A stretch of DNA of 64,000 nucleotides from Candidatus Fimimonas gallinarum (lineage in GTDB: Bacteria > Bacillota > Clostridia > Christensenellales > CAG-314), in the NCBI GenBank assembly GCA_018712065.1, contig DVHL01000010.1:3028-67027 (forward strand). The letters run 5' to 3'. The position numbers and the translations under genes are program-made. The notes under the pieces are model-generated. The model saw only the letters and a program-made list of their open reading frames with translations, made no database searches and was not told where the DNA came from. This document shows positions 14,136-33,780 of the stretch, in pieces; position 1 is the first letter of the stretch, and the number at the start of each line of letters is the position of its first letter.

Positions 14136-16004
14136 TCAGTCGTCAATGTCGTCATCTTCCACCTTGATGCGGATTTTTTTGCGTTTAACAAACAGCACCA
14201 CAAACACAACGGTGAGAATCAATGCAACGCCCAAAATGGAAAGACCCACAATGGCATTGGTGGTTATTTGGTGCAGTCCAATCAGGTTGTCGGTGGGAAT
14301 CCAGCCGTAGGAAGTGGAACCGTCGTTTTTGCGAATTTCCACAAATGTGGCGTTGTTTTCTTCCTTTACGGCAACTACCTGCGAGCCGGAATACAACTTG
14401 ATGACATCGCCGTACTCGTCGCAAATTGCTTCGTTTTCTTCCATGTCGCTTGTAAGATAGATTTTGACCGCTTCAAAAAGAGATGAGTTTATCTTTTTGT
14501 ATCCGATGACTTCTTCGGCGGAAGTGGGGGCGCCTGTAGCATGAAATTGTCCCACGTTACCTGCCGAAACAAAACCTGTTTTGCCTTCGCCGTATTCCAC
14601 ACGGTACCATTCCGTAACGGTGCCGTCGGCGTGATTTTCCGTAAACTTCTGCAAAAGTTTTGCTTCCTGCGGATTGGCTATTGACTGTTGGAAAGTGTCG
14701 CCAGGCTCTATGTCAGAAAGGGGCAACGGGTAGATGAACACCGTGTTGAGCGACGTAAATTTCGCCTTGTAGGTTACATCCTGGCTTATTTGCGTGTTTA
14801 CAATTGTAAGGCGACTGTCGTTTTGCGGTAGCGTTACGCCGTCGCTCTTTTGCACCCAGCCGAACTTGTCGCCAATCAAAACGTAGTAGAAGGGCAAGTC
14901 TTCCGCACCTTCAAAATCCAAAATGATAAATTGACCCGTGTAGTCGGTTTTAATTTCCGAAATGCTGGTGGATGCGTCGGTGGTTTTGTACACAATATTT
15001 GTGGGGTAGCCCTTTGACGACGCAAGCGTGAAACCCGTGAACTGTGCGGGAGTGGGAAGTTGTCCGTCTATCGTAATTGTATCGGTGCCGATGGTGGCTG
15101 GTTGACGTTCAAATTGTTGTTTTTCCGTGTTGTAGGAATAAATTTCCACTTCGTTGGCGCTGTTGAGCAGGAAAATTTTGCCTGCGCCGTAACACATGTC
15201 TTTTACAGTTACGTTGGTAGCGTTGATAAGTGTTCTTTCTGCCGAATATCTTCCGCCGGAAACTTGTTCCAACGTGAATGCTCCGTTTTCACCGAACAGT
15301 GCAAGTTGCGTTGCGCCGTTGACTTGGTAGGAGAATATTCCCAGTATTTCCGTCATTGCAAGGGAAACGCCGTTTTTGTTGAGGGGGTCGTTGGAGTCGA
15401 AACTGGGGGTTATACCTTCTCCTACATTGAGGTTAAGACGTTTCAGGGCGTTGCCGTCTTTTACAAAGTACAGTTGTCCGTCAACTACTGCACAAGCGGT
15501 GGCGTTTTCCGTCGCACTGTCCATAGGAAGGCTACTTGTGTCGTCCAAAGCGTAAACTCTGTCGGCGGCGTAATAGGGTAGAGCGTCGTCACCGTTGCGG
15601 TCTCCGTAGTAGCCGAAGGTGAAATCCACGACGTTTTCCAATTCCAACGTTTTTGTTTTTGTAAGTTGCGTTGCGCCAACTTCAAAAACTTCCACACTGT
15701 CGGCGTACATTACGTAAAGTTGTCCGTCCACTTCGGCAAGATTGACAATTTTTTGAGTAGTGGTGTAGGTGTAGCGGTAGGAAGGTTGACTTGCGGTAAC
15801 GTCAAAACACAAAACGGCGCTTTGATTGTTTGTTTCGTCAACGTTGTCCGCCACAAAAATGTAGTTGTAGACAGTAACTATCGCCGCAGGATTGATAAGA
15901 CTGCGGTTGGCGTCGGCTGTACTTTGCGCAAAAGCGGCAGCAGGTACAACCGCCAACAACACAAGCACTGTCAATACAAATAAAATTGTTGAAATTCGCT
16001 TCAT
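14136..16004 (-). CDS. Secreted, C-terminally membrane-anchored protein (propeller-like N-terminus, SH3b-like repeats)
   Basis: Signal peptide MKRISTILFVLTVLVLLAVVPAAAFA; WYRVEY..KTGFV and YGWIP SH3b-like motifs; C-terminal TM followed by KRKK. Confidence 0.7.
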   Translation of the reverse strand: MKRISTILFVLTVLVLLAVVPAAAFAQSTADANRSLINPAAIVTVYNYIFVADNVDETNNQSAVLCFDVTASQPSYRYTYTTTQKIVNLAEVDGQLYVMYADSVEVFEVGATQLTKTKTLELENVVDFTFGYYGDRNGDDALPYYAADRVYALDDTSSLPMDSATENATACAVVDGQLYFVKDGNALKRLNLNVGEGITPSFDSNDPLNKNGVSLAMTEILGIFSYQVNGATQLALFGENGAFTLEQVSGGRYSAERTLINATNVTVKDMCYGAGKIFLLNSANEVEIYSYNTEKQQFERQPATIGTDTITIDGQLPTPAQFTGFTLASSKGYPTNIVYKTTDASTSISEIKTDYTGQFIILDFEGAEDLPFYYVLIGDKFGWVQKSDGVTLPQNDSRLTIVNTQISQDVTYKAKFTSLNTVFIYPLPLSDIEPGDTFQQSIANPQEAKLLQKFTENHADGTVTEWYRVEYGEGKTGFVSAGNVGQFHATGAPTSAEEVIGYKKINSSLFEAVKIYLTSDMEENEAICDEYGDVIKLYSGSQVVAVKEENNATFVEIRKNDGSTSYGWIPTDNLIGLHQITTNAIVGLSILGVALILTVVFVVLFVKRKKIRIKVEDDDIDD

Positions 16005-16619
16005 TTTAACCTCAAAGTACAACATACTGCAAAGTCGGACATGTCGGCAACTTTCACGGCGCAACAATTGTTTTTACGAAAATGTCATGGCGCCACATTA
16101 CAACGAGTTACCAAATGGCTTTGCAAAACTTTTGGTGTATCAAGTTTTTATATTATAGCAAATATTACTTGTTTTTTCAACAGTTTAAGACATAAATAAA
16201 CATTTTTTGCACTTTTGATTTTTTCTCGATAATTTCTCGATAAAAAATTTTGTTTCAAGCATTTTTACTGTGTGTATTTTACGGAAAAATATCTTTTTGT
16301 AAAGTTCCGACGGTTAAAAGCAACAAAGCGTCTGCGTGTGGCGTTTCAACCTTTCACGACACGTTGCCCAATGCAAAACTTACTAAATTGCTGTTATAAA
16401 TGCGGACAAAATCACATTTCAAACACCTTTGTCGGACGGCGAAGGAAAAACTTCTTTGAAATGTAGCAAATTTAATCTTTCAAATTTTCCGAAAACAAAA
16501 AAGTTGCAAAAATAAGCATCATTTTGAAACGTTGCGATTTTTTTCGCTTAGGCACGGTAAAAATATGTCAAGCCTTTTCAATGCAATTTTACCGTAAAAT
16601 GTTTTTTTGAAAAATTACT

Positions 16620-16900
16620 CATTATGCCATCAAAGACATATTCGACAAAAAACGATGCTTTGTTTTCCATTGGACACAATAAAAATCCGCAAGCCTCTTT
16701 GGTAATCTTTCAGACAATTTATTTGTTGAAATAAACACGCTTATATGCCGTAAAAGACATATTCGACAAAACACAATGCTTTGTTTTCCATTGGAACAAT
16801 AAAAATTCGCAAACCTCTTTCAATGCAATTTTCTTATGAAATGTTGTTTGTCGGAAAAATCACGCTTAAATGTCACAAAAGACATATTCGACAAAAAAAA
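16620..16900. repeat. Three ~121-125 bp tandem units, each with aaagacatattcgacaaaa (includes TTCGACA, the reverse complement of the Spo0A box TGTCGAA)
   Basis: TTCGACA at 16641, 16762 and 16887. Confidence 0.8.
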
Positions 16901-16968
16901 TGATAAAAAAATCGTTGGATTTTGTGAGAAAAAATATTAAAACTGCCAGACTGTTGTCATATTTTCTT

Positions 16969-17003
16969 TGTTATTATAGCCGTGAAAATAGAACAAATGT
17001 TCG
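16969..17003 (+). promoter_or_regulatory. Extended -10 promoter followed by a Firmicutes LexA (Cheo) box
   Basis: TG-T-TATTAT at 16969-16977; aGAACaaatGTTCg at 16990-17003 (GAAC-N4-GTTC), just upstream of RBS aaggagg. Confidence 0.75.
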
Positions 17004-17027
17004 CGAACGATGAAAGGAGGTGTTAAA

Positions 17028-17495
17028 ATGAATTACGAATTGGTAATGTTGAGGGGCATTCCCTATTGTAAAAAAACGGCGCAGCGTTTGCAAAAGCAAT
17101 GCATGTCGACGGCGTTGCGTTCTTTTTCTTCGTCGCAGGCAAAAGGGGGCACATTGGGTCAGATGACGGAAGTTGCCGAACTTGCCCGCATGAGAGATGA
17201 TTTTTTGTATTTTCTTTCCTGCGTCAAAAGTGCGCTTACCGCATTGCCCGACTCTTTCCGAGCGTTACTGGTGGAAATTTACATAAAAAACATAAGCAAA
17301 GAACACATTTGCCAAACCTACGGCGTGTCCATGTCCACCCTGTACCGAAAACTTGCCCGAGCAAGACAGTGTTTCAAAGGCAAGTTGGAATTTTTGGGTT
17401 GCGACGAGCAGTGGTTTGAAAACACCTACGGCGACACCGATTGGGTGCGAAAGTTGCTGGACAAGCAACACAACGGCTCTCGCATTGCATTGTGA
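17028..17495 (+). CDS. RinA/ArpU-like transcriptional activator with C-terminal sigma70 region-4-type HTH
   Basis: ALTALPDSFRALLVEIYIKNISKEHICQTYGVSMSTLYRKLARARQCF fits the sigma4/HTH pattern; strong RBS aaggaggtg. Confidence 0.7.
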   Translation: MNYELVMLRGIPYCKKTAQRLQKQCMSTALRSFSSSQAKGGTLGQMTEVAELARMRDDFLYFLSCVKSALTALPDSFRALLVEIYIKNISKEHICQTYGVSMSTLYRKLARARQCFKGKLEFLGCDEQWFENTYGDTDWVRKLLDKQHNGSRIAL

Positions 17496-17855
17496 TTGCG
17501 CAATGCCGTCGTTGTGATTGTGTGCAACCTGAGGTTACGCTTTCGGTACTGTCTTGCGTGAACATATGCGCACATGTGCATTTGAAAGTTGCCCAAGACC
17601 GTTACTTTTAATCACAAACTTTCTGCGGTATTAAACGATGTTTTGGAAGGTAAAAAGGCAATTTGGAGGGATGTCATTCGGGACGTCTTTATTTTTGCGA
17701 AAATTGTCGCAAATCAACATTCAAATTGACGGCTATTTTGATGTTTGGCATGTTCAGGCACTTTCACAAGCGTTTCAGGCAGTGCGTAACTTTATTTGCA
17801 ACGAGTTCAATTTTTGTACGGTCAACAAGTACTTTTTTGCCTTAAAGTTGCGCCT

Positions 17856-18236
17856 CAGCCCAAAGGCAAGTTTGCTTGAACGTTTCGGGGTTGCAAAGGG
17901 CATTGAACTTTCTGCTGTTATCGTACAAGCATAGTTTACATTTGTTGCAAATGTCGCAAGTTGCCTGAAACGAACCACGGCATTTATCGCACAGCCCAAA
18001 GGCAAGTTTGCTTGAACGTTTCGGGGTTTCAAAGGGCAGTACCTTTTTGTTGTTACACGTCAGCATTAAGCACATTGTTCAGATGCCTGCAAGTTGCCTG
18101 AAACGAACCACGGCATTTATCGCACAGCCCGACGGCAATTTTGCCGTAACGTTTCGGGGTTGCAAAGGGCATTGAACTTTCTGCTGTTATCGTACAAGCA
18201 TAGTTTACATTTGTTGCAAATGTCGCAAGTTGCCTG
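17856..18236. repeat. Three ~133-136 bp tandem units (internal segment pattern A-B-A)
   Basis: cagccc..ggcaa.tttgc..aacgtttcggggtt.caaagggca at 17856, 17992 and 18125. Confidence 0.9.
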
Positions 18237-18377
18237 CAACACGTTGTTGCATCGGCTGTCTATCGCCTGTAAGTTGCAAAATTTTGTTGCCCTAGCCCTG
18301 TTGGTGTCATTGCACAGTAAAACAAACGTGTTTTTAAGGGCGGTGAAAGTCGGGGCAATTTTTGTCGGTGGTTACCG

Positions 18378-19109
18378 TCAGAGGTCTTTGTCGAAGACGT
18401 CTTTCTTTTTGAGGTTTCCCGGCAAAAACAATGCCAGACAAACGCTTACGGCTAGTATTGCCACAAACACGATGAGGAAAATTTCCGTTGTAATGCCCGT
18501 TTCGCCGTCAGGTTCCTCTTCCAAGGGAATGTCGGGAATTTCATCCGTTGGCGGAACAACGACGTCCTGTGGCAAAGGGGTGGGGTGCATGGCAATTATC
18601 GGTTTTGTTACGCAATCGGAGGTTACGTAACCGAATTTGCCGGCAAAGTACACGTAGTACCACGTTTCTCCGTAGGATTTTGTTTCACCGTAGTAACTCA
18701 TGGTTTGAGTGTTGGTAACGGTAATGAGCGTTTCGGCAGAAGGCACGGGAGAAAGTTTCAGTTGCGCCGAATCGGTGTTGACTGTTATTTTTTCCGTCGG
18801 ATAGTAGGGCGGTTGGGGCGGTTCGTCGCAGTCTTCCACCTCGATTTTCCACACGTACCCCGTTATTTGCGGAAAATCCTCTTCGTTTTGCATTATCGCA
18901 ACGTTGTACATGCCGTTTTTCTCCCCCAAAACCTGCAAGTAGTAACTTTTGGGAAGTTCAAACATAACTTTGGAATTTTCGCAGGTGGCGTAGAGATTCA
19001 CGTCATCTTCCGTAATTCTTACCCATTGCACGTCCTGCGCAACTGCCTTTTGGGGAAAGACGGCACACAGGAAAGACAACAGTAATATTGCAACACAAAA
19101 CCTTTTCAC
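18378..19109 (-). CDS. Secreted SH3b-like protein with Pro-rich linker and C-terminal TM anchor
   Basis: Signal peptide (VKRFCVAILLLSFLCAVFPQKAVA), ITGYVW and WYYVYFAGKFGYV motifs, TM followed by KKK; GTG start after ggaggt; divergent from terL. Confidence 0.7.
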   Translation of the reverse strand: MKRFCVAILLLSFLCAVFPQKAVAQDVQWVRITEDDVNLYATCENSKVMFELPKSYYLQVLGEKNGMYNVAIMQNEEDFPQITGYVWKIEVEDCDEPPQPPYYPTEKITVNTDSAQLKLSPVPSAETLITVTNTQTMSYYGETKSYGETWYYVYFAGKFGYVTSDCVTKPIIAMHPTPLPQDVVVPPTDEIPDIPLEEEPDGETGITTEIFLIVFVAILAVSVCLALFLPGNLKKKDVFDKDL

Positions 19110-19220
19110 AAATTTTACCTCCATGCAAATTGTAACGTAAACTTCACATCGGTTTTTGCCGAATATTGATTTTTGCGGGCGAGTATTGACTATTTGAAAA
19201 CTGTAACAGACGGTGGTGAT

Positions 19221-20633
19221 ATGAAAGAAATCGTTGAGCGTCTTTTGGACATCCAAAAGGAGGAAAACAGGCGCAAACACACCCCTTTGTCGGGGTACAA
19301 CAAAGTAAAAATACACAAAAAACAAATGGCTTTTCACAAATGTCAAAAGCGCAACAGGTGGGTTTTTGGCGGAAACAGAAGCGGCAAGACGGAGTGCGGC
19401 GCAGTGGAAACGGTGTGGCTCGCACGGGGAATTCACCCCTACCGCCCCAACAGAAAAGAAATAAGTTGCTGGGTCGTTTCCCTTTCTCAACAGGTGCAGA
19501 GGGACGTGGCGCAGCAAAAAATACTGTACTATCTCGATAAACGCTGGATAAGGCAGATCTCCATGCTGTCCGGTTCAAAATCCAGCCCCGAATACGGCGT
19601 GATAGATTACATCGTGATAGAAAACGTGTTTGGAGGCACATCGAAAATCGCCTTCAAAAGTTGTGAAGCGGGAAGGGAAAAGTTTCAGGGAACGTCGTTG
19701 GACTTCGTGTGGTTTGACGAAGAACCCCCAAAGGAAATTTACGAGGAATGCCGAATGAGAATTCTGGACAGGAAGGGGGAGATTTTCGGAACGATGACGC
19801 CTCTCAAAGGGCTGACGTGGGTGTACGACGAAATTTACCTCAACAGCAAAAACAGCAGCGAGGTGTGGTGCGAGTTTATGGAATGGGCGGACAACCCCTA
19901 TCTTTCGCAAAAGGAAATTGTCGCCATGTCGGAGACGCTTTCCGCGGACAGCCTGGAATCTCGCCGCTACGGAAGATTTCAGTCGCTGGGAGGAATGGTG
20001 TACAGCGAATTTTCCGAGCAAAACGTCATTCAACCCTTTGACGTGCCTGCGGAATGGCAGGACAAACTTTCCATCGACCCCGGTCTGAACAATCCGCTTT
20101 CCTGTCATTGGTACGCCAGGGATTTCGACGGCAACGTGTACGTTGTTGCGGAACATTACGAGGCAAAAAAGGACGTGGCTTACCACGCACAAAGAATACG
20201 GGAAATAAGCCGTCAACTCAATTGGCACAAGGACAAGTTCGGCAATTACACTGCGCTTATGGACAGTGCGGCAAACCAACGCACGCTGAACGGTCAAAAA
20301 AGCGTGGCGGAACTGTTTTGCCATGAAGGCATAGACGTGAACACCTGCGTCAACAAGGATTTGTACACAGGCATAAACAAGGTGAAATACATGCTTAAAC
20401 CTCTTAACGGTGCGCCCAAACTTTTTGTCTTTTCCTGTTGCGTCAACATGATAAGGGAATTCAAGGGGTATTTTTGGGGCGAAGGCGACAGACCCGTCAA
20501 AAAGGACGACCACGCAATGGACGAACTGCGTTACTACATCTCGTCCCTTTCCGAACGCAAAAAACCGCAGGAACAAAAGAGCGCAATAGCGTTGGACAAG
20601 GAAAAACTTGCAAGAAAACTGCGTCAAAGGTAG
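19221..20633 (+). CDS. Phage terminase large subunit
   Basis: Walker A GGNRSGKT, Walker B FVWFDEE, coupling motif TMTP, RNase H-like SIDPG...DDHAMDELRY. Confidence 0.93.
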   Translation: MKEIVERLLDIQKEENRRKHTPLSGYNKVKIHKKQMAFHKCQKRNRWVFGGNRSGKTECGAVETVWLARGIHPYRPNRKEISCWVVSLSQQVQRDVAQQKILYYLDKRWIRQISMLSGSKSSPEYGVIDYIVIENVFGGTSKIAFKSCEAGREKFQGTSLDFVWFDEEPPKEIYEECRMRILDRKGEIFGTMTPLKGLTWVYDEIYLNSKNSSEVWCEFMEWADNPYLSQKEIVAMSETLSADSLESRRYGRFQSLGGMVYSEFSEQNVIQPFDVPAEWQDKLSIDPGLNNPLSCHWYARDFDGNVYVVAEHYEAKKDVAYHAQRIREISRQLNWHKDKFGNYTALMDSAANQRTLNGQKSVAELFCHEGIDVNTCVNKDLYTGINKVKYMLKPLNGAPKLFVFSCCVNMIREFKGYFWGEGDRPVKKDDHAMDELRYYISSLSERKKPQEQKSAIALDKEKLARKLRQR

Positions 20634-21320: not shown

Positions 21321-21542
21321 ATGATTACCGCAACAACAGACAAAACAAAGTGCGACGTAAGGGATTGTCGCAACATGGCGCAATACGTTTTGCCATGCAA
21401 GGGAAGAGGAGGCAAATTCTTTTTGTGTAAACAGTGCGCAGAAAAAATTGCCGACGCCATTAACGCAGAAAGAACGCCCAAAAGTCCCAAAAACGCCATC
21501 AAAAAAATGATAGACAAAAAGATGGAGGAAATGTATGAGTAA
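21321..21542 (+). CDS. Small putative Zn-finger protein
   Basis: CDVRDC...FFLCKQC; strong RBS aaggagg; overlaps the portal start. Confidence 0.6.
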   Translation: MITATTDKTKCDVRDCRNMAQYVLPCKGRGGKFFLCKQCAEKIADAINAERTPKSPKNAIKKMIDKKMEEMYE

Positions 21543-23355
21543 AAACAAGAAAAGGGAGGAAGTGCTGTTTGCCGAAGACGTGGTGGCGGATGTCAGGAAG
21601 GATTTTTCGGAAAGGCAAAACATGCGCCGTCCCTACGAACTTTCCTGGCAGTTGAACATGAACTTTATGATGGGCAATCAGTACTGTCAGATTACCCCAC
21701 GTGGGAGCATCGAACAGGAGGAAAAATTTTACTTCTGGCAGGAAAAGCAGGTGTACAACCACATTGCGCCCATTGTGGAAACACGTCTTTCCAGGCTGAA
21801 CCATGTTCGTCCACGTCCTATTGCCCGTCCCTTCTCAAACAGCGACAGCGACATCAGTTCCGCCAAAGTTTCCACAAAAATTTTGGACAGCGCACGGGAA
21901 AAAACGCACCTGGAAGAGGCTGTTACCCGTGCCACGCTGTGGAGCGAAGTGTGCGGAACGTCTTTTTACAAAATTACGTGGGACGCACAAAAGGGCGGCG
22001 ACGTGGCAATATCCGTGTGTTCCCCCTTTGAAATCTACCCCGATTCCAACGTGGCGCAGGGGTTGGAGGAATGCACGTCCGTCATTCACGCCAAAGTCTT
22101 TCCACGAAAGGAAATCGAAGAAAAATGGAAGGTTAGTCTGAAAGGGGAAAACATCAAGGTGTTTGCACTTTCTTCATCGGTGGGGATAGGCGGTTTGGGA
22201 TACAACTCCGCAGTGCCGTCCATTACGCAGGAAAGCAAAAGCGACCAAGTGTTGGTTTTGGAAAGGTACACCGCACCCGACGAAGCGCACCCCAACGGCA
22301 AACTGGAAATTGTAGCGGGGGACGTTTTGCTGTACACCGGCGACCTTCCCTACGCTTTGGGAGAGGACGGAAAACGCATTTTTCCCTTTGTGAGGCAAAT
22401 TTCCTCCGAACAGGCAGGTTGCTTTTGGGGGGCAAGCATTGTGGAAAGGGTAATTCCCGTGCAGAGGGCGTACAATGCCGTCAAAAACCGCAAACACGAA
22501 TTTATGAACAGGCTGGCAATGGGCGTGCTTACCGTCGAGGACGGTTCGGTGGACACCGACAATCTGGAAGAGGAAGGGCTTTCACCAGGGAAAATTCTGG
22601 TGTACAGGCAGGGCGCCGTCAAACCGCAACTTATGGACAGCGGTGCGGTGCCGTCGGATTTTTCCGACGAGGAAGACAGACTGTTGCAGGAATTCGTTAC
22701 CGTTTCCGGCGTGTCGGAATTTGCCCGCAACAGTACCACGCCCACAACGGTTACCAGCGGACTTGCATTGCAACTTATTGCCGAGCAGGACGACATACGT
22801 CTTGCAAGTTCCATCGACAGCGTCAAACTTGCCATCAAAAAACTTGCCAAATACATTTTGCGTATGTACAAGCAGTTTGTAACGGCAAGCAGGCTGGCAC
22901 GTCTTGCGGACGGTCAGGGGGGAGCGGAACTGTTTTACTTTTCCGCCAGCGACATAGGCAGCGACGATGTGGTTTTCGAAACGGAAAACGACCTTACGGA
23001 CACCCCGACAACAAGGCGCACCATGGTGATGGATTTGCTCAACGCAGGCATCATGAACGACGCCAACGGAAAACTTCCCGAAAGCACCAAGGCTAAAATT
23101 CTGACGCTGATGGGCTTCGGAAATTGGGAAAACGCACAGGACATAACGCAAATGCACTTGCAAAGGGCGGCAAAGGAAAACGTGGACATAGACAGTGCGG
23201 AAATTTTGCCCGTGGACGACCACGCTCTGCACATCGAGGAACACACCCGTTTTGTGATATCGGGCCTTACGGACGGCAACAAAGACTACCGCCAAAAGGT
23301 GCTGGACCACATTGCCATGCACCGCAAAATTTCGGCGCAGAAACAAGGAGAATAA
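21535..23355 (+). CDS. Phage portal protein (P22-like size and pattern)
   Basis: 606 aa between terminase and scaffold/capsid; YNHIAPIV..RL..L...RP, PVQRAYN, TSGLAL..IAEQD pattern; family assigned from recall and synteny. Confidence 0.75.
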   Translation: MSKNKKREEVLFAEDVVADVRKDFSERQNMRRPYELSWQLNMNFMMGNQYCQITPRGSIEQEEKFYFWQEKQVYNHIAPIVETRLSRLNHVRPRPIARPFSNSDSDISSAKVSTKILDSAREKTHLEEAVTRATLWSEVCGTSFYKITWDAQKGGDVAISVCSPFEIYPDSNVAQGLEECTSVIHAKVFPRKEIEEKWKVSLKGENIKVFALSSSVGIGGLGYNSAVPSITQESKSDQVLVLERYTAPDEAHPNGKLEIVAGDVLLYTGDLPYALGEDGKRIFPFVRQISSEQAGCFWGASIVERVIPVQRAYNAVKNRKHEFMNRLAMGVLTVEDGSVDTDNLEEEGLSPGKILVYRQGAVKPQLMDSGAVPSDFSDEEDRLLQEFVTVSGVSEFARNSTTPTTVTSGLALQLIAEQDDIRLASSIDSVKLAIKKLAKYILRMYKQFVTASRLARLADGQGGAELFYFSASDIGSDDVVFETENDLTDTPTTRRTMVMDLLNAGIMNDANGKLPESTKAKILTLMGFGNWENAQDITQMHLQRAAKENVDIDSAEILPVDDHALHIEEHTRFVISGLTDGNKDYRQKVLDHIAMHRKISAQKQGE

Positions 23356-23856: not shown

Positions 23857-25023
23857 ATGGTAACTCTCACAAGTGCGGAAAATGCGCTGAAAACATTGTA
23901 TCTCGGCGTTGTGGCAGACCAACTCAACACCAACGTCAACCCCCTGCTTGCCAAAATATCTCAAACCACAAGCGATGTGTGGGGAAAAGAAATAAGAAAA
24001 CTTGCGCCCTTCGGCATTAACGGCGGTATCGGCGCAGGCACGGAAGACGGCACATTGCCCGGTGCTGCGTCCAACAATTACGCACAGTTCGTGCTTACGC
24101 TCAAAAACCTGTACGGCACCATCGAAATTTCCGACAAGGCAATCAGGGCAAGTCAAAACAACAGCGGCGCCTTCGTCAATTTGCTGGAAGCGGAAATGGA
24201 AGGACTGATTAAGGCATCCAAATTCAACTTCGGCAGAATGTTGTTCGGCGACGGCTCGGGCGTGCTGTGCAAGGCGTCGGCGCAAAGCGGCAACGTCATC
24301 ACCGTCGATTCCGTCAAAAACGTCATCGAAGGCATGGTGGTGGACGTTGTAGACGCTTCCACGAAAGGCGTGGTTGTTTCGGCAAGACGCATCACCGACG
24401 TGGACCGCAGCGCAAAAACAATAACTTTGGCGGGCGCATCCATTGCGGCGTCCACCGTTTCCGCAGGCGACTGTGTAACGGTGCAGGGCAGTTACGGCAA
24501 CGAACTTACGGGGCTGGGAGCAATTTTCGGCAATTCCGAAACGTTGTACGGACTTGCCCGTTCGGCAAACAAGTGGCTTGCGCCCTACAAGGCAACGTCT
24601 ACGGAAATAAACGACGTGGTAATTCAGAAGGCAATAGACACCCTGGACGAAGTGGCAGGTTCCGTAGCCGACTTCATCGTGTGTTCGGCAGGGGTGAAGC
24701 GTGCCTATCAGGATTACCTCATCACCAACAGAAGCAACATCGACGTGATGAACCTGCAAGGAGGCTACAAAGCCATTTCCTACAACGGCATTCCCGTCGT
24801 GTCCGACAGATTTGCCCCCGAAGGCACAATGTACATTCTCAACACGTCGGATTTCCACCTTCACCAACTTTGCGATTGGCGTTGGTTGGAGGGCGACGAC
24901 GGCAGAGTAATCAAACAGGTGGCAAACAAGCCTGTGTACACGGCAACTCTTGTCAAGTACGCCGACATGATTTGCGACAGACCCATCGGACAGGCTGTTA
25001 TCAGCGGTATCACCGAAAAGTAA
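23857..25023 (+). CDS. Phage major capsid protein (HK97 fold inferred)
   Basis: 388 aa; LKNLYGTIEISDKAIRAS spine-helix region, GLGAIF, YNGIPVVSDRFAPEGTMYILN P-domain pattern; strong RBS. Confidence 0.85.
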   Translation: MVTLTSAENALKTLYLGVVADQLNTNVNPLLAKISQTTSDVWGKEIRKLAPFGINGGIGAGTEDGTLPGAASNNYAQFVLTLKNLYGTIEISDKAIRASQNNSGAFVNLLEAEMEGLIKASKFNFGRMLFGDGSGVLCKASAQSGNVITVDSVKNVIEGMVVDVVDASTKGVVVSARRITDVDRSAKTITLAGASIAASTVSAGDCVTVQGSYGNELTGLGAIFGNSETLYGLARSANKWLAPYKATSTEINDVVIQKAIDTLDEVAGSVADFIVCSAGVKRAYQDYLITNRSNIDVMNLQGGYKAISYNGIPVVSDRFAPEGTMYILNTSDFHLHQLCDWRWLEGDDGRVIKQVANKPVYTATLVKYADMICDRPIGQAVISGITEK

Positions 25024-25385: not shown

Positions 25386-25937
25386 ATGAAAGTTCTGGAA
25401 ATATTGAAACTGTGCAACGGAATGGCGGATTTGCAACTGCCCGAAAGGTACTTTGCCGAGCAAAGCGATGCGCTTGCCGACGAAAGAATTACAAAACTTG
25501 TGTATTGTTGCAACAGCCTTTTGGAACAACTGTACTGCGATTACGCAACGGCTTTGAAAAAATGCACGCTGGTGGCAACGGACGGATTTGCCGATACTTC
25601 CGGTCTCGATTTCAACCGAGTGGTTTCCCTTGTGGATTCAAACGGCAACAACGTGCGTTACCGCTACACCAAAGGCGGTTTGAGCGTTGCCGACGGCACC
25701 TACACCCTTACCTACGCTTCGTTGCCTCAACGTGTCGGGTGGACGGAGGAAGTGGAAATGCCTTCGCCACGCATTACGCCTCGCATTTTTGCCTACGGTT
25801 GCCTTGCGGAGTACTTTTTTTCCGTCGGAGACGTGGGGCAGTCGTCGTTGTGGAATGACAAATTCCTCAATGCGCTGAAAACGGCAAACGTGAAAAAATC
25901 CGCAATGACCATGCCCCCTGTGGGGAGGTGGTTGTGA
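25386..25937 (+). CDS. Putative head-tail adaptor (T7 gp11/P22 gp4-like position)
   Basis: 183 aa, helix-beta-helix layout ending FAYGCLAEYF...WNDKF..AL; synteny after the capsid; RBS gaggagg. Confidence 0.55.
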   Translation: MKVLEILKLCNGMADLQLPERYFAEQSDALADERITKLVYCCNSLLEQLYCDYATALKKCTLVATDGFADTSGLDFNRVVSLVDSNGNNVRYRYTKGGLSVADGTYTLTYASLPQRVGWTEEVEMPSPRITPRIFAYGCLAEYFFSVGDVGQSSLWNDKFLNALKTANVKKSAMTMPPVGRWL

Positions 25938-27154
25938 TGTTTTCGGCTACTCGGACAAACGTTTCTGCCGAAAAAATTTTGGTAAACACAAGTTTTGACG
26001 GTGAAAAAGGCGGTTTTACCCCTAAAAAACAGCAAAACGTAGTTGTAAAAAGGGGAAGCCTGCATCCCGCATGCAAGTCGCAGCAGGTGTTTTCCACCGA
26101 CAAAGAGGTGTATTCCGCATTCGAGTTGCCCAACCAAATTGTGTTTTTTGCATGGAACGGCTTTTCCCGAATAACGGACGGTAAAGAGGAAAAAATCGGA
26201 AGCCTGCAATTCACCCGCCCCGTCTATCTGCACTGTCAGAAGCAAAATGCGTTGATTTTGTCGCAGAAGGGGGAATACACGGCAATGTACACGGAAGAGG
26301 GCGTTTCCACAATCTGCAACGTCGGCATGGAAAGCCTTGCGCTTTGTAAGGAGAGAGTAGTAGGCGTTGCGGACAACAAGGTGTATTTTTCCGATGTGGA
26401 CGATTTTTCCAGTTGGAACGAGATAACGTTGCCGGAAAAGGTGTGCGCCGTAACACAACTGCAGGAGGATGTTCTGCTTTTCGGAAAAGACGTTTTAAGG
26501 CTCAATTTCGGCAAAGACGTTGCCGACACTACCGTGGAAACGGTGTGCCGTAACGTAGGAATACCCTTTGCGCAAACTCTTTGCGCAGTTGGCAACAGCG
26601 TTGTGTATCTCACGGCAAACGGACTGATGAAGTTTAAAAATTCTTCCGTTACGAAGTTGGCGGAGGCATTCGCCGACAATGCCGAAGCGCAGGCAACGGT
26701 TTTTGGCGGAAAGTACGTTGTTTGTTGCAACACCGAGGAACAAAAGGGCGTTTTGCTGGAAACGGACTGCGAAACGGGGCAAAGCGTCGTTATCGGTAAA
26801 GCCGATTTTGTTACAGCAAACGGCGACAGACTGCTGTTTGGCATGGACGGAAAGGTTTGCACCTTCGGCGAGGAAAAAGCCGACGCTTTCTGGCAAAGTT
26901 ATCCGCAAAGTTTCGGTAACGCCGCAGCAAAAAAACATTTGCGCAAACTGACGGTGGACGCAGTGGGAAGCGTGGAAGTGCGCCTCATCGGTGAAATTGA
27001 CAAAAAAGTTTTCCGAATGCAGTGCAAAAATCCGCAAACGGTGCATTTGCAGGGAACGTTTCACAAACTGACTTTGGAAATTCTGACGTTTGGCAACGCC
27101 GTGGTTCATTCCGTCGGCGTTCTGGCGGAGATTTTCCGTTTGGGGGAGGTGTAG
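25937..27154 (+). CDS. Putative tail nozzle/DNA-stabilisation protein (P22 gp10/T7 gp12-like, beta-propeller)
   Basis: Beta-rich; KVYFSD..D...W, GNSVVYLTANGL, WQS...FG....KH pattern; TGATG coupling to the upstream gene. Confidence 0.55.
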   Translation: MFSATRTNVSAEKILVNTSFDGEKGGFTPKKQQNVVVKRGSLHPACKSQQVFSTDKEVYSAFELPNQIVFFAWNGFSRITDGKEEKIGSLQFTRPVYLHCQKQNALILSQKGEYTAMYTEEGVSTICNVGMESLALCKERVVGVADNKVYFSDVDDFSSWNEITLPEKVCAVTQLQEDVLLFGKDVLRLNFGKDVADTTVETVCRNVGIPFAQTLCAVGNSVVYLTANGLMKFKNSSVTKLAEAFADNAEAQATVFGGKYVVCCNTEEQKGVLLETDCETGQSVVIGKADFVTANGDRLLFGMDGKVCTFGEEKADAFWQSYPQSFGNAAAKKHLRKLTVDAVGSVEVRLIGEIDKKVFRMQCKNPQTVHLQGTFHKLTLEILTFGNAVVHSVGVLAEIFRLGEV

Positions 27155-27157
27155 AGT

Positions 27158-28090
27158 ATGGCAGAGATTTCCGCCGACAGGCAACAGAAACTGCTGGAAG
27201 AATACGAGCAACTGAAAGAAAAAATACTGGAAATCGACCACAAATACAGCCTTTCCTACCACGAGGTTAAGTTGGACATGCCGGAATCGTTGGGGTTGCA
27301 GAAACTGACGTTTACTCCCCACACCGAGGAAGAATTGCAACAACTGGCATTGCAGGAAGTGAAACCCAAGTACGACGAAAAATTGCGTGTGCTGCAAAAA
27401 AGCACAGACACGTCCAAAAACACCGTTTTGTACAACATAAGCGTTCAGGAAGAGAAAAACCGACAGCAACTGTCGCAACTTGAGGAACAACTTTCCGACG
27501 ACAAAAAATCGCTGTCAGACAAACTTGCGTACAACGGATTGTGGTATTCTACCATCAAACAGCAGGCGGAAAACAGTTTGCAACAGGACTACCTTGCGTC
27601 GGTGGAGGAGCAAAACACACGCCACGAAGCGCAGATTGCCGCCCTTGAAGAGAAAATCACCCAACTTGACAGCGTGTACAGCGAAGGTGCGGCAAGCATC
27701 CAAGAGCAACTGCAAACGGCATTGGCTGCGGAAATAGAGGTTTTCAGGGAAAAGGACGAAAAACAACGCATCGCCGTGGAAAAGTACAACAACACGGTGG
27801 ACGAAAAGGAAAACAAATACAAGGCAAGTTGCGCACGTGCGTTGCAGTACGCCATTCAGGCAGAGTACGAGCGTGCTTTCGAAGCGGCGAAAATCTATGC
27901 CGAACTTGGCGAAGCAGGCGTGCAGCAACAAATGATGTCGGAAAAACTGAGTTGTTGCAAAATACAGTTCACCGCCTACAACAGGACGGAAGCGTTGTTT
28001 GTAATGAGTATCGATTCTTTTTTGCAAACTAACCTTGGCGACTACTATTCCGCTTTGGAAGATTGGGTAAACACAATTTTGCGTCCGTAA
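27158..28090 (+). CDS. Coiled-coil protein, last gene of the phage-like operon (possible internal/ejection protein)
   Basis: Q/E/K-rich heptads; RBS ggaggtg; function inferred only from position. Confidence 0.5.
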   Translation: MAEISADRQQKLLEEYEQLKEKILEIDHKYSLSYHEVKLDMPESLGLQKLTFTPHTEEELQQLALQEVKPKYDEKLRVLQKSTDTSKNTVLYNISVQEEKNRQQLSQLEEQLSDDKKSLSDKLAYNGLWYSTIKQQAENSLQQDYLASVEEQNTRHEAQIAALEEKITQLDSVYSEGAASIQEQLQTALAAEIEVFREKDEKQRIAVEKYNNTVDEKENKYKASCARALQYAIQAEYERAFEAAKIYAELGEAGVQQQMMSEKLSCCKIQFTAYNRTEALFVMSIDSFLQTNLGDYYSALEDWVNTILRP

Positions 28091-28365: not shown

Positions 28366-28851
28366 GTTTTTGTTTGCCCTGCCCGAAATTTTGTTTTTTG
28401 AATTTGCACCCTTTGTTTTTCCTTGCAACGTGTTTTTCACGGCATTGCGACGAGGTTTCGGGGAAAAATTTTTGCAATGCCTGTTGTGGCGAGGGCAAGT
28501 GCCAACTTCGCCACGTGTTTTGTGCAACAAGCGCAAAGGGGCAAAAGCAATAGTTTCAACTTGTAAATTTTTTCAGGGGGCGGTTTCCGCTCCCTTTTGT
28601 TTTGCAAAAAATTGCCTTCTGTTTTGCAAAATTTACCGTTGTGTTTCAAACAACGAAATTGACGGCAAATGAAAGGCAGTACCTTGCAAAAATTCGGGCA
28701 GAAAAATTATTTCGGGGTAGGTTTTGGGCAATAAAATAACTGTTGTTTCAAAGACTTGCTTAAAAAATATAATTGTTGTATAATATCTGCAAAAGGACGG
28801 CGTGAAACGCTGTGCGTGAGCGTTGTCCAAAACTTTTACGGAGAAATTGCT

Positions 28852-29670
28852 GTGAGATATCAAAGTAAATCGGCAATTGCATATTTTTTCCGCAACTTCT
28901 GGCATCTTGTTCCGTGGAGCGTGGTGTCGGCTGTTTTGCTGGGAATGTTTTGCAACAACAATACGGTAATTGTGGTGTATCACGATTTTATTGCGGGAAA
29001 CATTACCGCCGAAAACGTCGCCACTACGGTTTTGAACTACGCCGGCGTTTTGCGTTTCGGGCAGTATTGGTGGGGGTTGCTTGTGGCATTGGTGGTGTTT
29101 TCCTTCACGGAAAGCCTGCTGATGGTAAAGGTGGAACGCCACATGCGTGTAGGGGAAATGAAAGCCTTTCCCTTCCGCCGTGCTTTGTCCCTTACGCCCA
29201 CGGTGTTTGTGTTTGTGCTGTGCGTAACTGCGGTGCTGGAATGTCTTAACCTCATTGTAGTGGGAATTGCCTTTCTTTTGCAATCGTTTGGGGTAACGGC
29301 GGTGCTGTGGACAAGTGCGGCTTTGCTTGTATTGGTAAAGGTGCTGTTGATGCTTCTCATCGGAACTTTGCTTGTGGCGTTTCCCATAATGATTTTGGAA
29401 AATTACAGTTTCAATCAGGCGTTGTCCTACTCGGTGAGATTGATGAGCGAAAAACGCAGGTTTTTGTGGTTGCTTGCAACGCTGTATCCCCTCACGGAAA
29501 TAGTGCTGACGGTAATTTCCGCTTTGATTGACGTTTATGCCGTTACCGTTACTTTATTTGCGCTGATGTACCTTGTCGGCATTGCTCTTATGCCCAGCGT
29601 AACTTTCAAATTGTACTACGACAGCGTCGGCGGCGAGCGCAGAGATATTTCCTGCGTTATGTTCGGCTGA
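28852..29670 (+). CDS. Hypothetical polytopic membrane protein
   Basis: About 6 hydrophobic segments; probable GTG start after ggag. Confidence 0.7.
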   Translation: MRYQSKSAIAYFFRNFWHLVPWSVVSAVLLGMFCNNNTVIVVYHDFIAGNITAENVATTVLNYAGVLRFGQYWWGLLVALVVFSFTESLLMVKVERHMRVGEMKAFPFRRALSLTPTVFVFVLCVTAVLECLNLIVVGIAFLLQSFGVTAVLWTSAALLVLVKVLLMLLIGTLLVAFPIMILENYSFNQALSYSVRLMSEKRRFLWLLATLYPLTEIVLTVISALIDVYAVTVTLFALMYLVGIALMPSVTFKLYYDSVGGERRDISCVMFG

Positions 29671-29683
29671 CAACGGGGGCGTT

Positions 29684-30685
29684 ATGTTACTTAACAAAGC
29701 ATTGATTCTTTCTGCAAACAACTGGAAAGTAATGGTGAAAGCGCTGATTTTTCAGGTGCTTATTCTTGCATTGCTTGTCGCCCTGTGCTTTTTGATTTTC
29801 GGCGGAATAGTAAACGACATCATCAGCGTTTCCACGGCAGGCGGTTGGGATGATTTTTTCCGTGATACCGTTCAATCAATTGCCGACGGTACTTTCGACG
29901 GCACAACGTTTGCACAACAGTTGGCGCAAAGCATAGACAAAACGCAGGCGGCAATAGAGGCAATCCCCAACATGTGGAACAGGGTGGAATTTTCCTACAT
30001 CACCTGCATAATACTTGTAATTTTGTACCGCATGCTCATTTCCTTTTCCGACGTTGCGGTATGTTTTCAGATTGCGGAATTCATGACGTCCAACACGGAA
30101 CGTCCCTTCACATGGTTTGTGGTGAAAAAATTCGGCGAAAGTTGCAGTTTCATTTTCCGTCAGATGCTGTTGGCTTTGCCGTTGGATTTGCTGGTACTTA
30201 TCGGCAGTACGGGGCTCAGCCTCATCTTTGTGCTGACTCTCAGATGGTGGTCCATCATTCCCGCAGCGATAATTGCATTGTTTATGTATTCGGCAAGGCA
30301 CGCCTATCTTGCTTTTTGGCTTCCTTCGCTTGTTACCGAGGGCAAAAACGTGCGTCAAAGTTGCATAAACGGGCTTACCGTCATTCCCCGCCGTTTCTGG
30401 CACGTTTTCTGGAAAACTTTTGTGGTAATTTTGCTTATGGCGTGCATTTCGTTGGTGTCGTTGCTGTACATCGACAACGCGTTGCTGAAACTTGCCGTAG
30501 GCACGGTACCCAACCTTTGCCTGTTTTTCATTTTGAAATGTATCAACCTTGTGGAATACTTTCAGGCAACCAACAAACCTTACTTCTACAAAAAGGTGTA
30601 CGTCGAAGGTACCGACCAGTTCAACAAAAAAATGGCAAGAGAAAAACGCTCTTCCAAATCGGCAAAGACAACAAAAAACAAGTGA
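29684..30685 (+). CDS. Hypothetical polytopic membrane protein
   Basis: About 6 hydrophobic segments, basic C-tail; co-oriented with the previous gene. Confidence 0.75.
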   Translation: MLLNKALILSANNWKVMVKALIFQVLILALLVALCFLIFGGIVNDIISVSTAGGWDDFFRDTVQSIADGTFDGTTFAQQLAQSIDKTQAAIEAIPNMWNRVEFSYITCIILVILYRMLISFSDVAVCFQIAEFMTSNTERPFTWFVVKKFGESCSFIFRQMLLALPLDLLVLIGSTGLSLIFVLTLRWWSIIPAAIIALFMYSARHAYLAFWLPSLVTEGKNVRQSCINGLTVIPRRFWHVFWKTFVVILLMACISLVSLLYIDNALLKLAVGTVPNLCLFFILKCINLVEYFQATNKPYFYKKVYVEGTDQFNKKMAREKRSSKSAKTTKNK

Positions 30686-30876
30686 GGAATTTTTGCTGTA
30701 AATTTTGCCGACACTCAAAATGATACTTCGTTTGCCATGGAGTGGCAAACTGCCGTTGCCTTTTCAAAGGCAACACAGTCAGGTTGCATCTGACAAAAAA
30801 TTTGACAAAAAGACAAAATATTGGCAAACAATCTTCGAGGAGATTGTCTTTTTGTGTTGTTAACAAGAGGAATTTT

Positions 30877-33384: not shown

Positions 33385-33780
33385 AAAGCAGTGCGACAAA
33401 AGTTTGTACAAAATACGTTTCGCACTTTCCAACTGCGGAACAAGTGTTTTCATGTTTTACGAGCGTTGTTCGTTCAACGTGGCTTGCTGAAATGATTGCA
33501 CGAAACGCTGTGCGTACTGTTTGCTACGGTGGAAGCAGTAGCGACACAGTTTGTCCAAAATACGTTTCGCACTTTCCAACTGCGGACAATCGTTTTCATG
33601 TTTTGCAAGCGTTGTCCATTTAATGTGGCTTGCTGAAATGATTGCACGAAACGCTGTACTGTACTGTTTGCCCCTGTGAAGCAGTAGCGACACAGTTTGT
33701 ACAAAATACGTTTCGCACTTTCCAACTGCGGAACAATAGTTTTCATGTTTTGTAAGCGTTGTTCTTTTAACGTGGCTTAC
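33385..33780. repeat. About 2.7 tandem copies of a ~146-147 bp unit
   Basis: aaaatacgtttcgcactttccaactgcgga at 33410, 33557 and 33703. Confidence 0.92.

Follow-up and report, generated by a model that had tools for sequence, protein, structure and literature searches.

In a 64,000-nucleotide stretch of the genome of Candidatus Fimimonas gallinarum (GenBank assembly GCA_018712065.1, contig DVHL01000010.1, positions 3,028 to 67,027; hereafter the window, G000:C42:3028-67027 in our numbering), a cluster of podovirus-like packaging and capsid genes is preceded by a small regulatory gene, here called REG. On balance we favour the reading that REG is the master late activator of a domesticated, podovirus-like cluster of the gene transfer agent (GTA) type, that its promoter is gated by the host repressor LexA and additionally by a regulator with a WYL domain, and that it acts in trans on terL, the gene of the large terminase. 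The source genome measures 1.43 Mb and is 94% complete, and the anatomy of the promoter, its conservation, the identity of the LexA motif, the synteny of the cluster and the operator shared with the WYL gene were all read from sequence and by comparison between genomes.

The promoter of REG packs its elements into a short span (Table 1). The extended -10 element, TG-T-TATTAT, was read directly from the sequence and is followed by AGAACAAATGTTCG, a LexA-type operator of the form A-GAAC-AAAT-GTTC-G, by the strong ribosome-binding site (RBS) AAAGGAGG, and by an open reading frame (ORF) for a 155-aa protein with a sigma4-type helix-turn-helix (HTH). Each of these elements had been named in the original prediction, which was made from the letters of this stretch without database searches, and every one was found in the sequence, as was the placement of terL 1.7 kb downstream on the same strand. 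Because no -35 hexamer stands 16-18 nt before the -10, and because a scan with the sigma-70 two-hexamer consensus omits this promoter, it is by its sequence a promoter of the extended -10 class that lacks a -35, with the LexA site over the expected start. The number of boxes carries no weight of its own, since GAAC-N4-GTTC occurs twice in the window against 1.84 expected, with 53 of 100 shuffles reaching two, and 12 times in the whole genome against about 21 expected from composition, mostly within ORFs. We therefore rejected the count alone as evidence, the number in the window being no higher than chance; the significance of the REG box lies in its conservation among orthologous promoters.

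A single REG orthologue was present in 35 of 36 genomes of the same genus, the one without it being 83% complete. The promoters were compared at 30 loci, our own and those of 29 other species whose proteins share 31-44% identity with REG, and a GAAC-N4-GTT[CT] box was found within 500 nt upstream of REG in all 30, so that the box, whose conservation in orthologues had been proposed as a check on the original prediction, is kept in every promoter examined. It is a perfect GAAC-N4-GTTC in 29 of them and GAACATTTGTTT in the other. Relaxed boxes were about 16-fold enriched ahead of REG compared with the remainder of the loci, with 33 of the 45 found in these loci falling within the REG-upstream windows (14,571 of 97,513 nt). 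When aligned on the box, the promoters share an A-rich tract, ACTGACAnACnGTTGTCA, TATTTnnTGTGnTATAAT, a gap of 11-17 nt and then TAGAACAAAnGTTCGAAAA, the box thus keeping a fixed position 11-17 nt downstream of the -10. Seven of the 30 loci (L007, L010, L013, L017, L019, L024 and L034) have long leaders, in which the box lies 97-473 nt from the start codon; several of these leaders have a short hairpin immediately ahead of the RBS, such as GTCCAACAAGnnGGAC, and control may have a further layer there.

Beyond the genus, the capsid protein was detected in 50 of 121 genomes of the order, and with the REG profile a REG-like ORF was recognised ahead of the capsid cluster in 14 of the 20 loci fetched from other families. 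A LexA-type box precedes seven of these 14 genes, and the windows ahead of the REG-like genes hold 9 of the 18 boxes present in 185,664 nt.

In Gram-positive bacteria the LexA operator is GAAC-N4-GTTC with an A/T-rich spacer (the Cheo box). The genome encodes a single LexA (G000:C20:19102-19722), with a LexA_DNA_bind domain (PF01726, E 2.5e-13) and an S24 peptidase domain (PF00717, E 1.4e-32), and AGAACAAAAGTTTC lies upstream of its gene. Across the genus, the region upstream of lexA carries the motif in 26 of 30 loci, written TAGAACAAAAGTTTG or GAACAAAAGTTT, as GAAC-N4-GTTT at one conserved place (consensus TTTTAGAACAAAAGTTTG), the perfect palindrome GAAC-N4-GTTC being found at lexA in none of the 30. 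The motif is also present, as AGAACATTTGTTTG, 27 nt upstream of the start of the gene for the IMS-family (Y-family) polymerase of this genome. From the sites at lexA and at the polymerase gene, the local LexA motif is therefore, as far as sequence can tell, GAAC-N4-GTTY, and the REG box is its best match in the genome. With one LexA, with its motif at lexA and at the polymerase gene, and with a box at 30 of 30 REG promoters, the sequence tests agree with the earlier claim that host LexA would control the late activator directly. Elsewhere in the window, GAACAAGTGTTT at 33438-33449 has the same sequence as the lexA operator variant found in two sister species; it falls in a repeat-rich non-coding stretch of about 700 nt between an O-methyltransferase gene and a U32 peptidase gene, and may be a further SOS site.

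A second conserved operator, the palindrome TGCCA-N6-TGTCA, covers the -35 region that lacks a box. The pattern TGMCA-N6-TGKCA was found 45-53 nt before the LexA box in 24 of the 30 REG promoters; two of the six misses were cut short by the search window, and four differ by one base or one spacing. Its half-site variants (TGACA/TGCCA and TGTCA/TGGCA) mix freely, with no covariation, which fits a degenerate protein-binding site better than a hairpin. In this genome the extended palindrome is present at the REG promoter and in two other places only, 53 nt apart, both of which lie between the gene of a WYL regulator (G000:C32:8380-9300) and a divergent ORF of 63 aa (locus L078, G000:C32:8380-9640) that matches no known family. 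The regulator has 306 aa, with HTH_11 (2.6e-12), WYL (8.4e-18) and WCX (4.7e-7) domains that all exceed their cut-offs, and it matches PafBC (6sj9) at E 1.3e-10. PafBC-type WYL proteins run LexA-independent damage responses, and other members of the HTH-WYL-WCX family, to which BrxR/CapW belong, sense single-stranded DNA or phage attack. The gene of the regulator was present in all 47 genomes of the genus, with at least one palindrome upstream in 24 of 30 loci. In its own promoter (TTGACA-17-TATAAT) one half-site coincides with the -35 box, which suggests that the regulator represses itself, and the promoter of the divergent 63-aa gene copies that of REG (GTTGKCATATTTnnTGTGCTAYAAT), without the LexA box.

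Across the 47 genomes the pattern CTGMCANNNNGTTGKCA gave 82 matches in 43 genomes, compared with 29 for the reversed control pattern. Sorted by hand, 34 of the 82 lie at REG promoters, 27 upstream of the WYL gene (in 20 genomes) and 21 elsewhere; the 34 comprise 28 within 500 nt of a mapped REG and six that lie 1.4-2.1 kb upstream of terL where REG was unmapped. From this distribution the WYL regulator seems to have very few targets, REG being one of them, and the palindrome common to the REG and WYL genes suggests that REG is under dual control. At REG we lean slightly towards a co-repressor over a required activator that would supply the missing -35 contact. The earlier observation that no CI or Cro is visible holds for the window, but the conserved second operator suggests the action of a WYL-domain regulator whose gene lies elsewhere in the genome. 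Two further occurrences of the palindrome were noted. The sister genome G015 has five identical copies of a REG-type palindrome, CTGACAGACAGTTGTCA, on contigs C21, C37 and C39, suggesting that the promoter region was duplicated there; and a similar palindrome, TGCCAACGATTTGTCA, lies 35 nt upstream of the gene of a PadR-like regulator (G000:C20:15383), where it may be due to chance or be a further site.

The protein encoded by REG resembles sigma factors over one region only. Residues 60-125 match sigma-70 region 4 (Pfam Sigma70_r4_2, E 0.0043, below the family cut-off), and the Pfam matches at E<=0.01, all of them sub-threshold, were limited to HTH_7, Phage_antitermQ, DUF1492 and Sigma70_r4_2. 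PHROGs returned 'RNA polymerase sigma factor' (3.2e-8) and phrog_248, 'transcriptional activator' (2.6e-6, residues 8-112), while NCBIfam returned ECF-type sigma factors, over region 4 only and far below the cut-offs (best 25 of 36 families for the protein itself and best 25 of 89 for all members). A profile of the 30 orthologues matched the sigma4 domain of SigL (3hug) at E 6.4e-6. The AlphaFold model (pLDDT 90.1, pTM 0.80) places helices at residues 3-32 and 41-71, the region-4 HTH at 75-122 and two short helices after it. Searches of the PDB with this model gave matches to region 4 only (3hug, 80 residues, Z 7.8); the N-terminal hairpin (residues 1-80) found generic helical hairpins or coiled coils only, at a Z of about 8 that is background for helical models. 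No profile match to sigma region 2 was found in REG (Pfam, and the NCBIfam families listed), whose residues 1-71 model as a two-helix hairpin. Among predicted viral structures, full-length REG matched small proteins of phages that are annotated as transcriptional activator, DUF1492 or sigma-70 region 4 (TM 0.6-0.7, best E 5e-4).

An exhaustive profile search with REG yielded 1287 representatives at E<=0.001, of which 109 reached E<=1e-10, and of 43 distant full-length relatives 28 carry region 4, six carry DUF1492 and none carries sigma region 2. Since tblastn of REG against 50,697 phage and 72,556 plasmid records returned nothing at E<=0.01, BLAST gives no link to RinA, ArpU or SigN. The description of the protein as RinA/ArpU-like suits its fold class and the position of its gene only, the profile matches being to sigma70_r4, DUF1492 and ECF sigma region 4; profile comparison, which had been proposed for the ORF, recovered sigma70_r4 below its cut-off, but neither the RinA nor the ArpU model was among the matches listed for REG (Pfam; NCBIfam, best 25 of 36 and best 25 of 89). 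By these matches REG fits best among the sigma70_r4 (LtrA) and DUF1492 (LtrB) classes of Ltr late activator; that it is a true sigma factor seems less probable.

Between REG and terL stands a convergent gene, which we call MEM, and because of it the two cannot form one operon and REG must act in trans. The proposal of a host SOS switch for the capsid module is supported by the sequence with this qualification: REG heads the module, on the same strand, but is not co-transcribed with terL. The divergent region between MEM and terL holds a candidate REG-dependent late promoter, TTTTGCCGAATATTGA (19154-19169) followed by GAGTATTGAC (19181-19190), which is the own-clade variant of the genus motif TTTTGCCGAGTTRTGT. 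In 21 of 38 relatives this motif lies no more than 260 nt from the start of terL, and 11 of 14 loci of 20 kb contain it exactly once; from its place and conservation we infer that it is a candidate target of REG. The variant in the window scores below 12 on the matrix of the motif, and when the genome was scanned with that matrix the top matches fell inside ORFs or in unrelated places, with no second REG-controlled locus among them.

Two SH3-domain envelope proteins encoded on the opposite strand, MEM and a protein of 643 aa (14136-16067, minus strand), flank REG in 14 of 14 loci, and could provide the cell-wall or release functions of the element. Three ORFs of the plus strand in this region were rejected as genes, those at 18094-18630 and 18585-19085 as antisense shadows of MEM, and that at 17638-17934 as lying within species-specific repeats.

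The module that follows runs from terL through the portal and major capsid genes to the last particle gene, after which the host gene for RNase J starts at 30742; the host genes upstream encode FakA, a deacetylase and an SSB-like protein. TerL and the major capsid protein were found in all 47 genomes of the genus, mostly in single copy, and the capsid protein keeps 58-90% identity across them, its best phage matches reaching only 27-31%. The order of genes was the same in all 14 loci of about 20 kb: deacetylase, SSB-like protein, SH3 protein (minus strand), REG, MEM (minus strand), TerL, portal, capsid, and so on to RNase J, methyltransferase and U32 peptidase. Identity across these loci is 59-89% for TerL, portal and capsid, which equals the conservation of the flanking housekeeping proteins (62-82%), and only 32-46% for REG. 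Among the ORFs of the module no integrase or replication family was matched in Pfam or PHROGs. Because every one of the 47 genomes has TerL and the capsid protein, and the same host genes flank them in all 14 loci compared, the module is, on comparative grounds, a domesticated, vertically inherited, GTA-like particle cluster and not a recent prophage. It combines the genomic marks of a GTA, namely phage-derived particle and packaging genes without an integrase or replication match, chromosomal fixation and vertical inheritance. That the element is domesticated had been supposed at the outset, and its genus-wide presence and synteny bear this out.

Table 1 Features of the REG promoter, the REG-terL interval and the particle module (positions in the window).
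Feature	Position	Strand	Details
Second operator, palindrome TGCCA-N6-TGTCA	16944..16959	+	Genus consensus ACTGACAnACnGTTGTCA; centre at about -32.5, over the -35 region that lacks a box
Extended -10 of the REG promoter	16969..16977	+	Genus consensus TGTGnTATAAT
LexA-type operator AGAACAAATGTTCG	16990-17003	+	12 nt after the -10, over the expected transcription start
RBS AAAGGAGG	17013-17020	+	7 nt ahead of ATG 17028
REG	17028..17495	+	155-aa basic protein, 17.8 kDa, pI 9.3; N-terminal two-helix hairpin, region-4 HTH, two short C-terminal helices
Terminator-like hairpin and T-run downstream of REG	17667..17700	+	Consensus match only
MEM	18378..19109	-	243 aa, convergent; signal peptide, SH3_3 domain, C-terminal membrane anchor; between REG and terL in 14/14 loci
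Candidate REG-dependent late promoter	19154..19190	+	In the MEM/terL divergent region
Large terminase TerL	19173..20633	+	Probable start ATG 19221; Pfam Terminase_6N/6C, phrog_2
P22-like portal protein	21535..23355	+	Domain and profile matches, synteny
Major capsid protein	23857..25023	+	phrog_14242, E 8e-73
Conserved particle gene	25386-25937	+	
Internal-virion-like protein gene	25928-27154	+	
DUF7934 particle gene	27158-28090	+	
Conserved particle gene	28756-29670	+	
Conserved particle gene	29684-30685	+	Last of the module

REG is surrounded by repeats that are peculiar to this species. Tandem repeats of about 121 nt, in three copies, lie at 16538-16900, upstream of the REG promoter, and others of about 133 nt, likewise in three copies, lie at 17820-18240, between REG and MEM. 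Both sets are absent from the relatives, where the stop of REG abuts that of MEM, and a search of 16000-19300 against Rfam, the repeats included, gave no match at E<=0.1. In addition, the direct repeat TTGTGATTG occurs twice, 22 nt apart, at 17490-17520, beginning within the stop codon region of REG; it was not conserved in the relatives. According to PMC3753634, the binding sites of Ltr activators are short direct repeats that lie immediately beyond the activator genes.

Public sequencing runs from the chicken gut, six of which are RNA libraries, contain the stretch as contigs, which show neither transcription starts nor levels, and the tandem repeats around REG break the assembly in these runs. 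In one RNA library (X17) a contig starts at 16994, inside the LexA box, with almost no cover just upstream, which is at most a weak hint.

The mechanism that we propose brings these parts together. Host LexA, bound to AGAACAAATGTTCG over the transcription start, would keep REG off until DNA damage leads to RecA-stimulated self-cleavage of LexA and so to synthesis of REG. A second dimeric regulator, most likely the HTH-WYL-WCX protein, would act as a second gate from the palindrome over the -35 region. REG would then act in trans on the motif in the MEM/terL divergent promoter and turn on terL, portal, capsid and the downstream genes, so that DNA damage probably triggers the production of particles. 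The binding of LexA and of the WYL regulator, induction by damage, the target of REG and the direction of its effect are what we infer in this scheme. A stricter form of it, which we put forward tentatively and which may well not hold, is a two-key damage gate, with LexA on the start and a PafBC-like WYL protein on the -35-less promoter, such that particle production, and probably cell death too, would need both an SOS signal and a WYL signal (for example single-stranded DNA). The only other conserved targets of the WYL regulator in the genus would be its own gene and the divergent 63-aa gene. If this form is true, the two known bacterial damage responses would be joined at one promoter of a domesticated virus.

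Several observations weigh against the LexA-REG-terL scheme. At the promoter, the species of one genus are not independent samples, and outside the genus the searched window held no box at seven of the 14 REG-like genes, one of which has only 79 nt upstream. The classic SOS gene recA, which follows another coding sequence, showed no box in the 450 nt scanned upstream, which leaves lexA and the IMS polymerase gene as the only two known members of the local SOS regulon. The contigs of two RNA libraries run straight through the REG promoter. As for the target, the motif upstream of terL is absent or divergent in three of the 14 long loci, and the window itself has a variant; most of the sites scored for the motif also built its matrix, only L043 and L047 being independent; and the motif, sited in a divergent promoter, could serve MEM rather than terL. 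Lastly, no lysis genes were recognised in the window, where no endolysin or holin family was matched.

Four other explanations were weighed against the same evidence. REG might be a true alternative sigma factor, of the SigN or TcdR/UviA group, that replaces sigma-A and reads the terL promoter itself. We think this unlikely, if worth keeping in mind. The NCBIfam matches (among the families listed) and the PDB matches of REG are all to ECF-type sigma factors, the motif upstream of terL is unlike a sigma-A promoter, and SigN, as reported in PMC6751061, offers a precedent for a LexA-repressed sigma gene on a phage-like element. The matches cover region 4 only, however, and the N-terminal 71 residues form a plain two-helix hairpin with generic coiled-coil matches only; none of the 43 distant relatives has Sigma70_r2, whereas six match DUF1492, the class of the LtrB activators, and REG has no BLAST match in plasmids or phages. 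That the WYL regulator is the real switch, with the LexA box adding little or nothing in nature, we judge improbable. Its palindrome does cover the -35 region of a promoter without a -35 and is shared almost only with the promoter region of the WYL gene, and the protein is similar in sequence to PafBC, whose damage responses are independent of LexA; but it is the LexA box that is present in 30 of 30 promoters, against 24 of 30 for the palindrome under the strict pattern, and that persists outside the genus, where the palindrome was found in only one of 14 loci.

REG could also be controlled by LexA and yet regulate the SH3-domain envelope genes (MEM and the gene at 14136-16067) or others, and not the capsid operon. 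The two opposite-strand SH3-domain genes at its sides in 14 of 14 loci, and a conserved motif in the promoter region common to MEM and terL, would be in keeping with this. We nevertheless consider it quite improbable, as REG-like genes also stand ahead of the capsid cluster elsewhere in the order, in other families, and REG shares its fold class with the phage late activators that are encoded in front of packaging genes, as set out in PMC3753634. The last explanation, that the palindrome arose by chance or serves another protein and that the cluster is a decaying prophage, hardly seems credible to us: one such palindrome per 64 kb is expected by chance, but the box stands in 30 of 30 species at 31-44% identity of REG, the same motif is found at lexA and the IMS polymerase gene, and the genes of the cluster are all intact, syntenic and genus-wide.

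If LexA does gate REG, the conserved operator on a master activator would give a concrete trigger for GTA-like elements, whose switch is left undescribed in the available text of PMC12946183. DNA-damaging drugs or compounds of the diet would then promote gene exchange through capsids, and probably lysis as well, in gut bacteria that are abundant but uncultured. It would also show how a host can take over a domesticated virus: the one phage regulator retained has come under the host's SOS repressor and apparently under the WYL regulator too. Promoter, activator and candidate target motif are each short and well delimited.

Among known systems, SigN (ZpdN) of the Bacillus subtilis plasmid pBS32 seems to be the closest published analogue of REG. 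There, according to PMC6751061, chromosomal LexA represses the sigma-A promoter of the element's sigma regulator and damage derepresses it, whereupon the regulator turns on genes of the element. SigN itself is a proven sigma factor, is encoded on the plasmid and is amplified by positive feedback through a promoter of its own; the prophage structural genes largely fall outside its regulon. REG is, like SigN, a small sigma-like regulator of a phage-like element with a LexA-type operator on its promoter. Unlike SigN it shows no region 2, has no BLAST match in plasmids and heads a chromosomal, vertically inherited capsid cluster, and no autoregulatory site was seen at REG.

The Ltr super-family, as defined in PMC3753634, comprises RinA, ArpU, LtrA (sigma70_r4), LtrB (DUF1492) and LtrC; its members are expected to bind short repeats before the late promoter as the sole element-encoded factor needed, and the ltr gene of those phages is under the phage CI repressor. 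REG shares with them its small size, basic character and region-4-like C-terminal HTH, and the conserved position of its gene just upstream of the packaging genes. It differs from them in length (155 aa, against about 130 aa for Ltr), in the LexA-type operator on its promoter, with no CI in the window, and in the convergent gene that stands before terL.

In SaPI operon I (Ubeda et al. 2007), LexA reportedly acts on the packaging operon itself, in a mobile, helper-phage-dependent island. The arrangement proposed here would be similar in that host LexA acts directly on the packaging functions of a phage-related chromosomal element, and would differ in that the operator lies on the activator gene of an immobile, genus-wide element. 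The WYL regulator resembles the HTH-WYL-WCX proteins of the PafBC type in its HTH_11, WYL and WCX domains, and its palindromes overlap its own promoter.

FpGTA of Faecalibacterium prausnitzii is described in PMC12946183 as a podovirus-like TerL/portal/capsid operon of about 10 kb without lysogeny genes, whose particles measure about 40 nm and hold about 9 kb of host DNA each; GTA-like packaging is also reported there in Christensenellaceae genomes and as common in gut Clostridia. The regulation of FpGTA is not described in the available text, in which the word LexA occurs 0 times. Our cluster is likened to it by gene content, as a podovirus-like TerL, portal and capsid cluster of gut Clostridia.

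Searches of the literature for gene transfer agents and LexA in Firmicutes found nothing on this element by title or abstract, and those for UviA and LexA found reviews only. Known already are LexA as repressor of a sigma-like regulator of a phage-like element, in SigN, and, reportedly, LexA over packaging genes, in SaPI operon I. What goes beyond the literature searched is the LexA wiring on a genus-wide, partly order-wide, GTA-like element, an activator of a sigma4-only family without a sequenced phage relative, and the operator of a WYL regulator on the same promoter as the LexA box.

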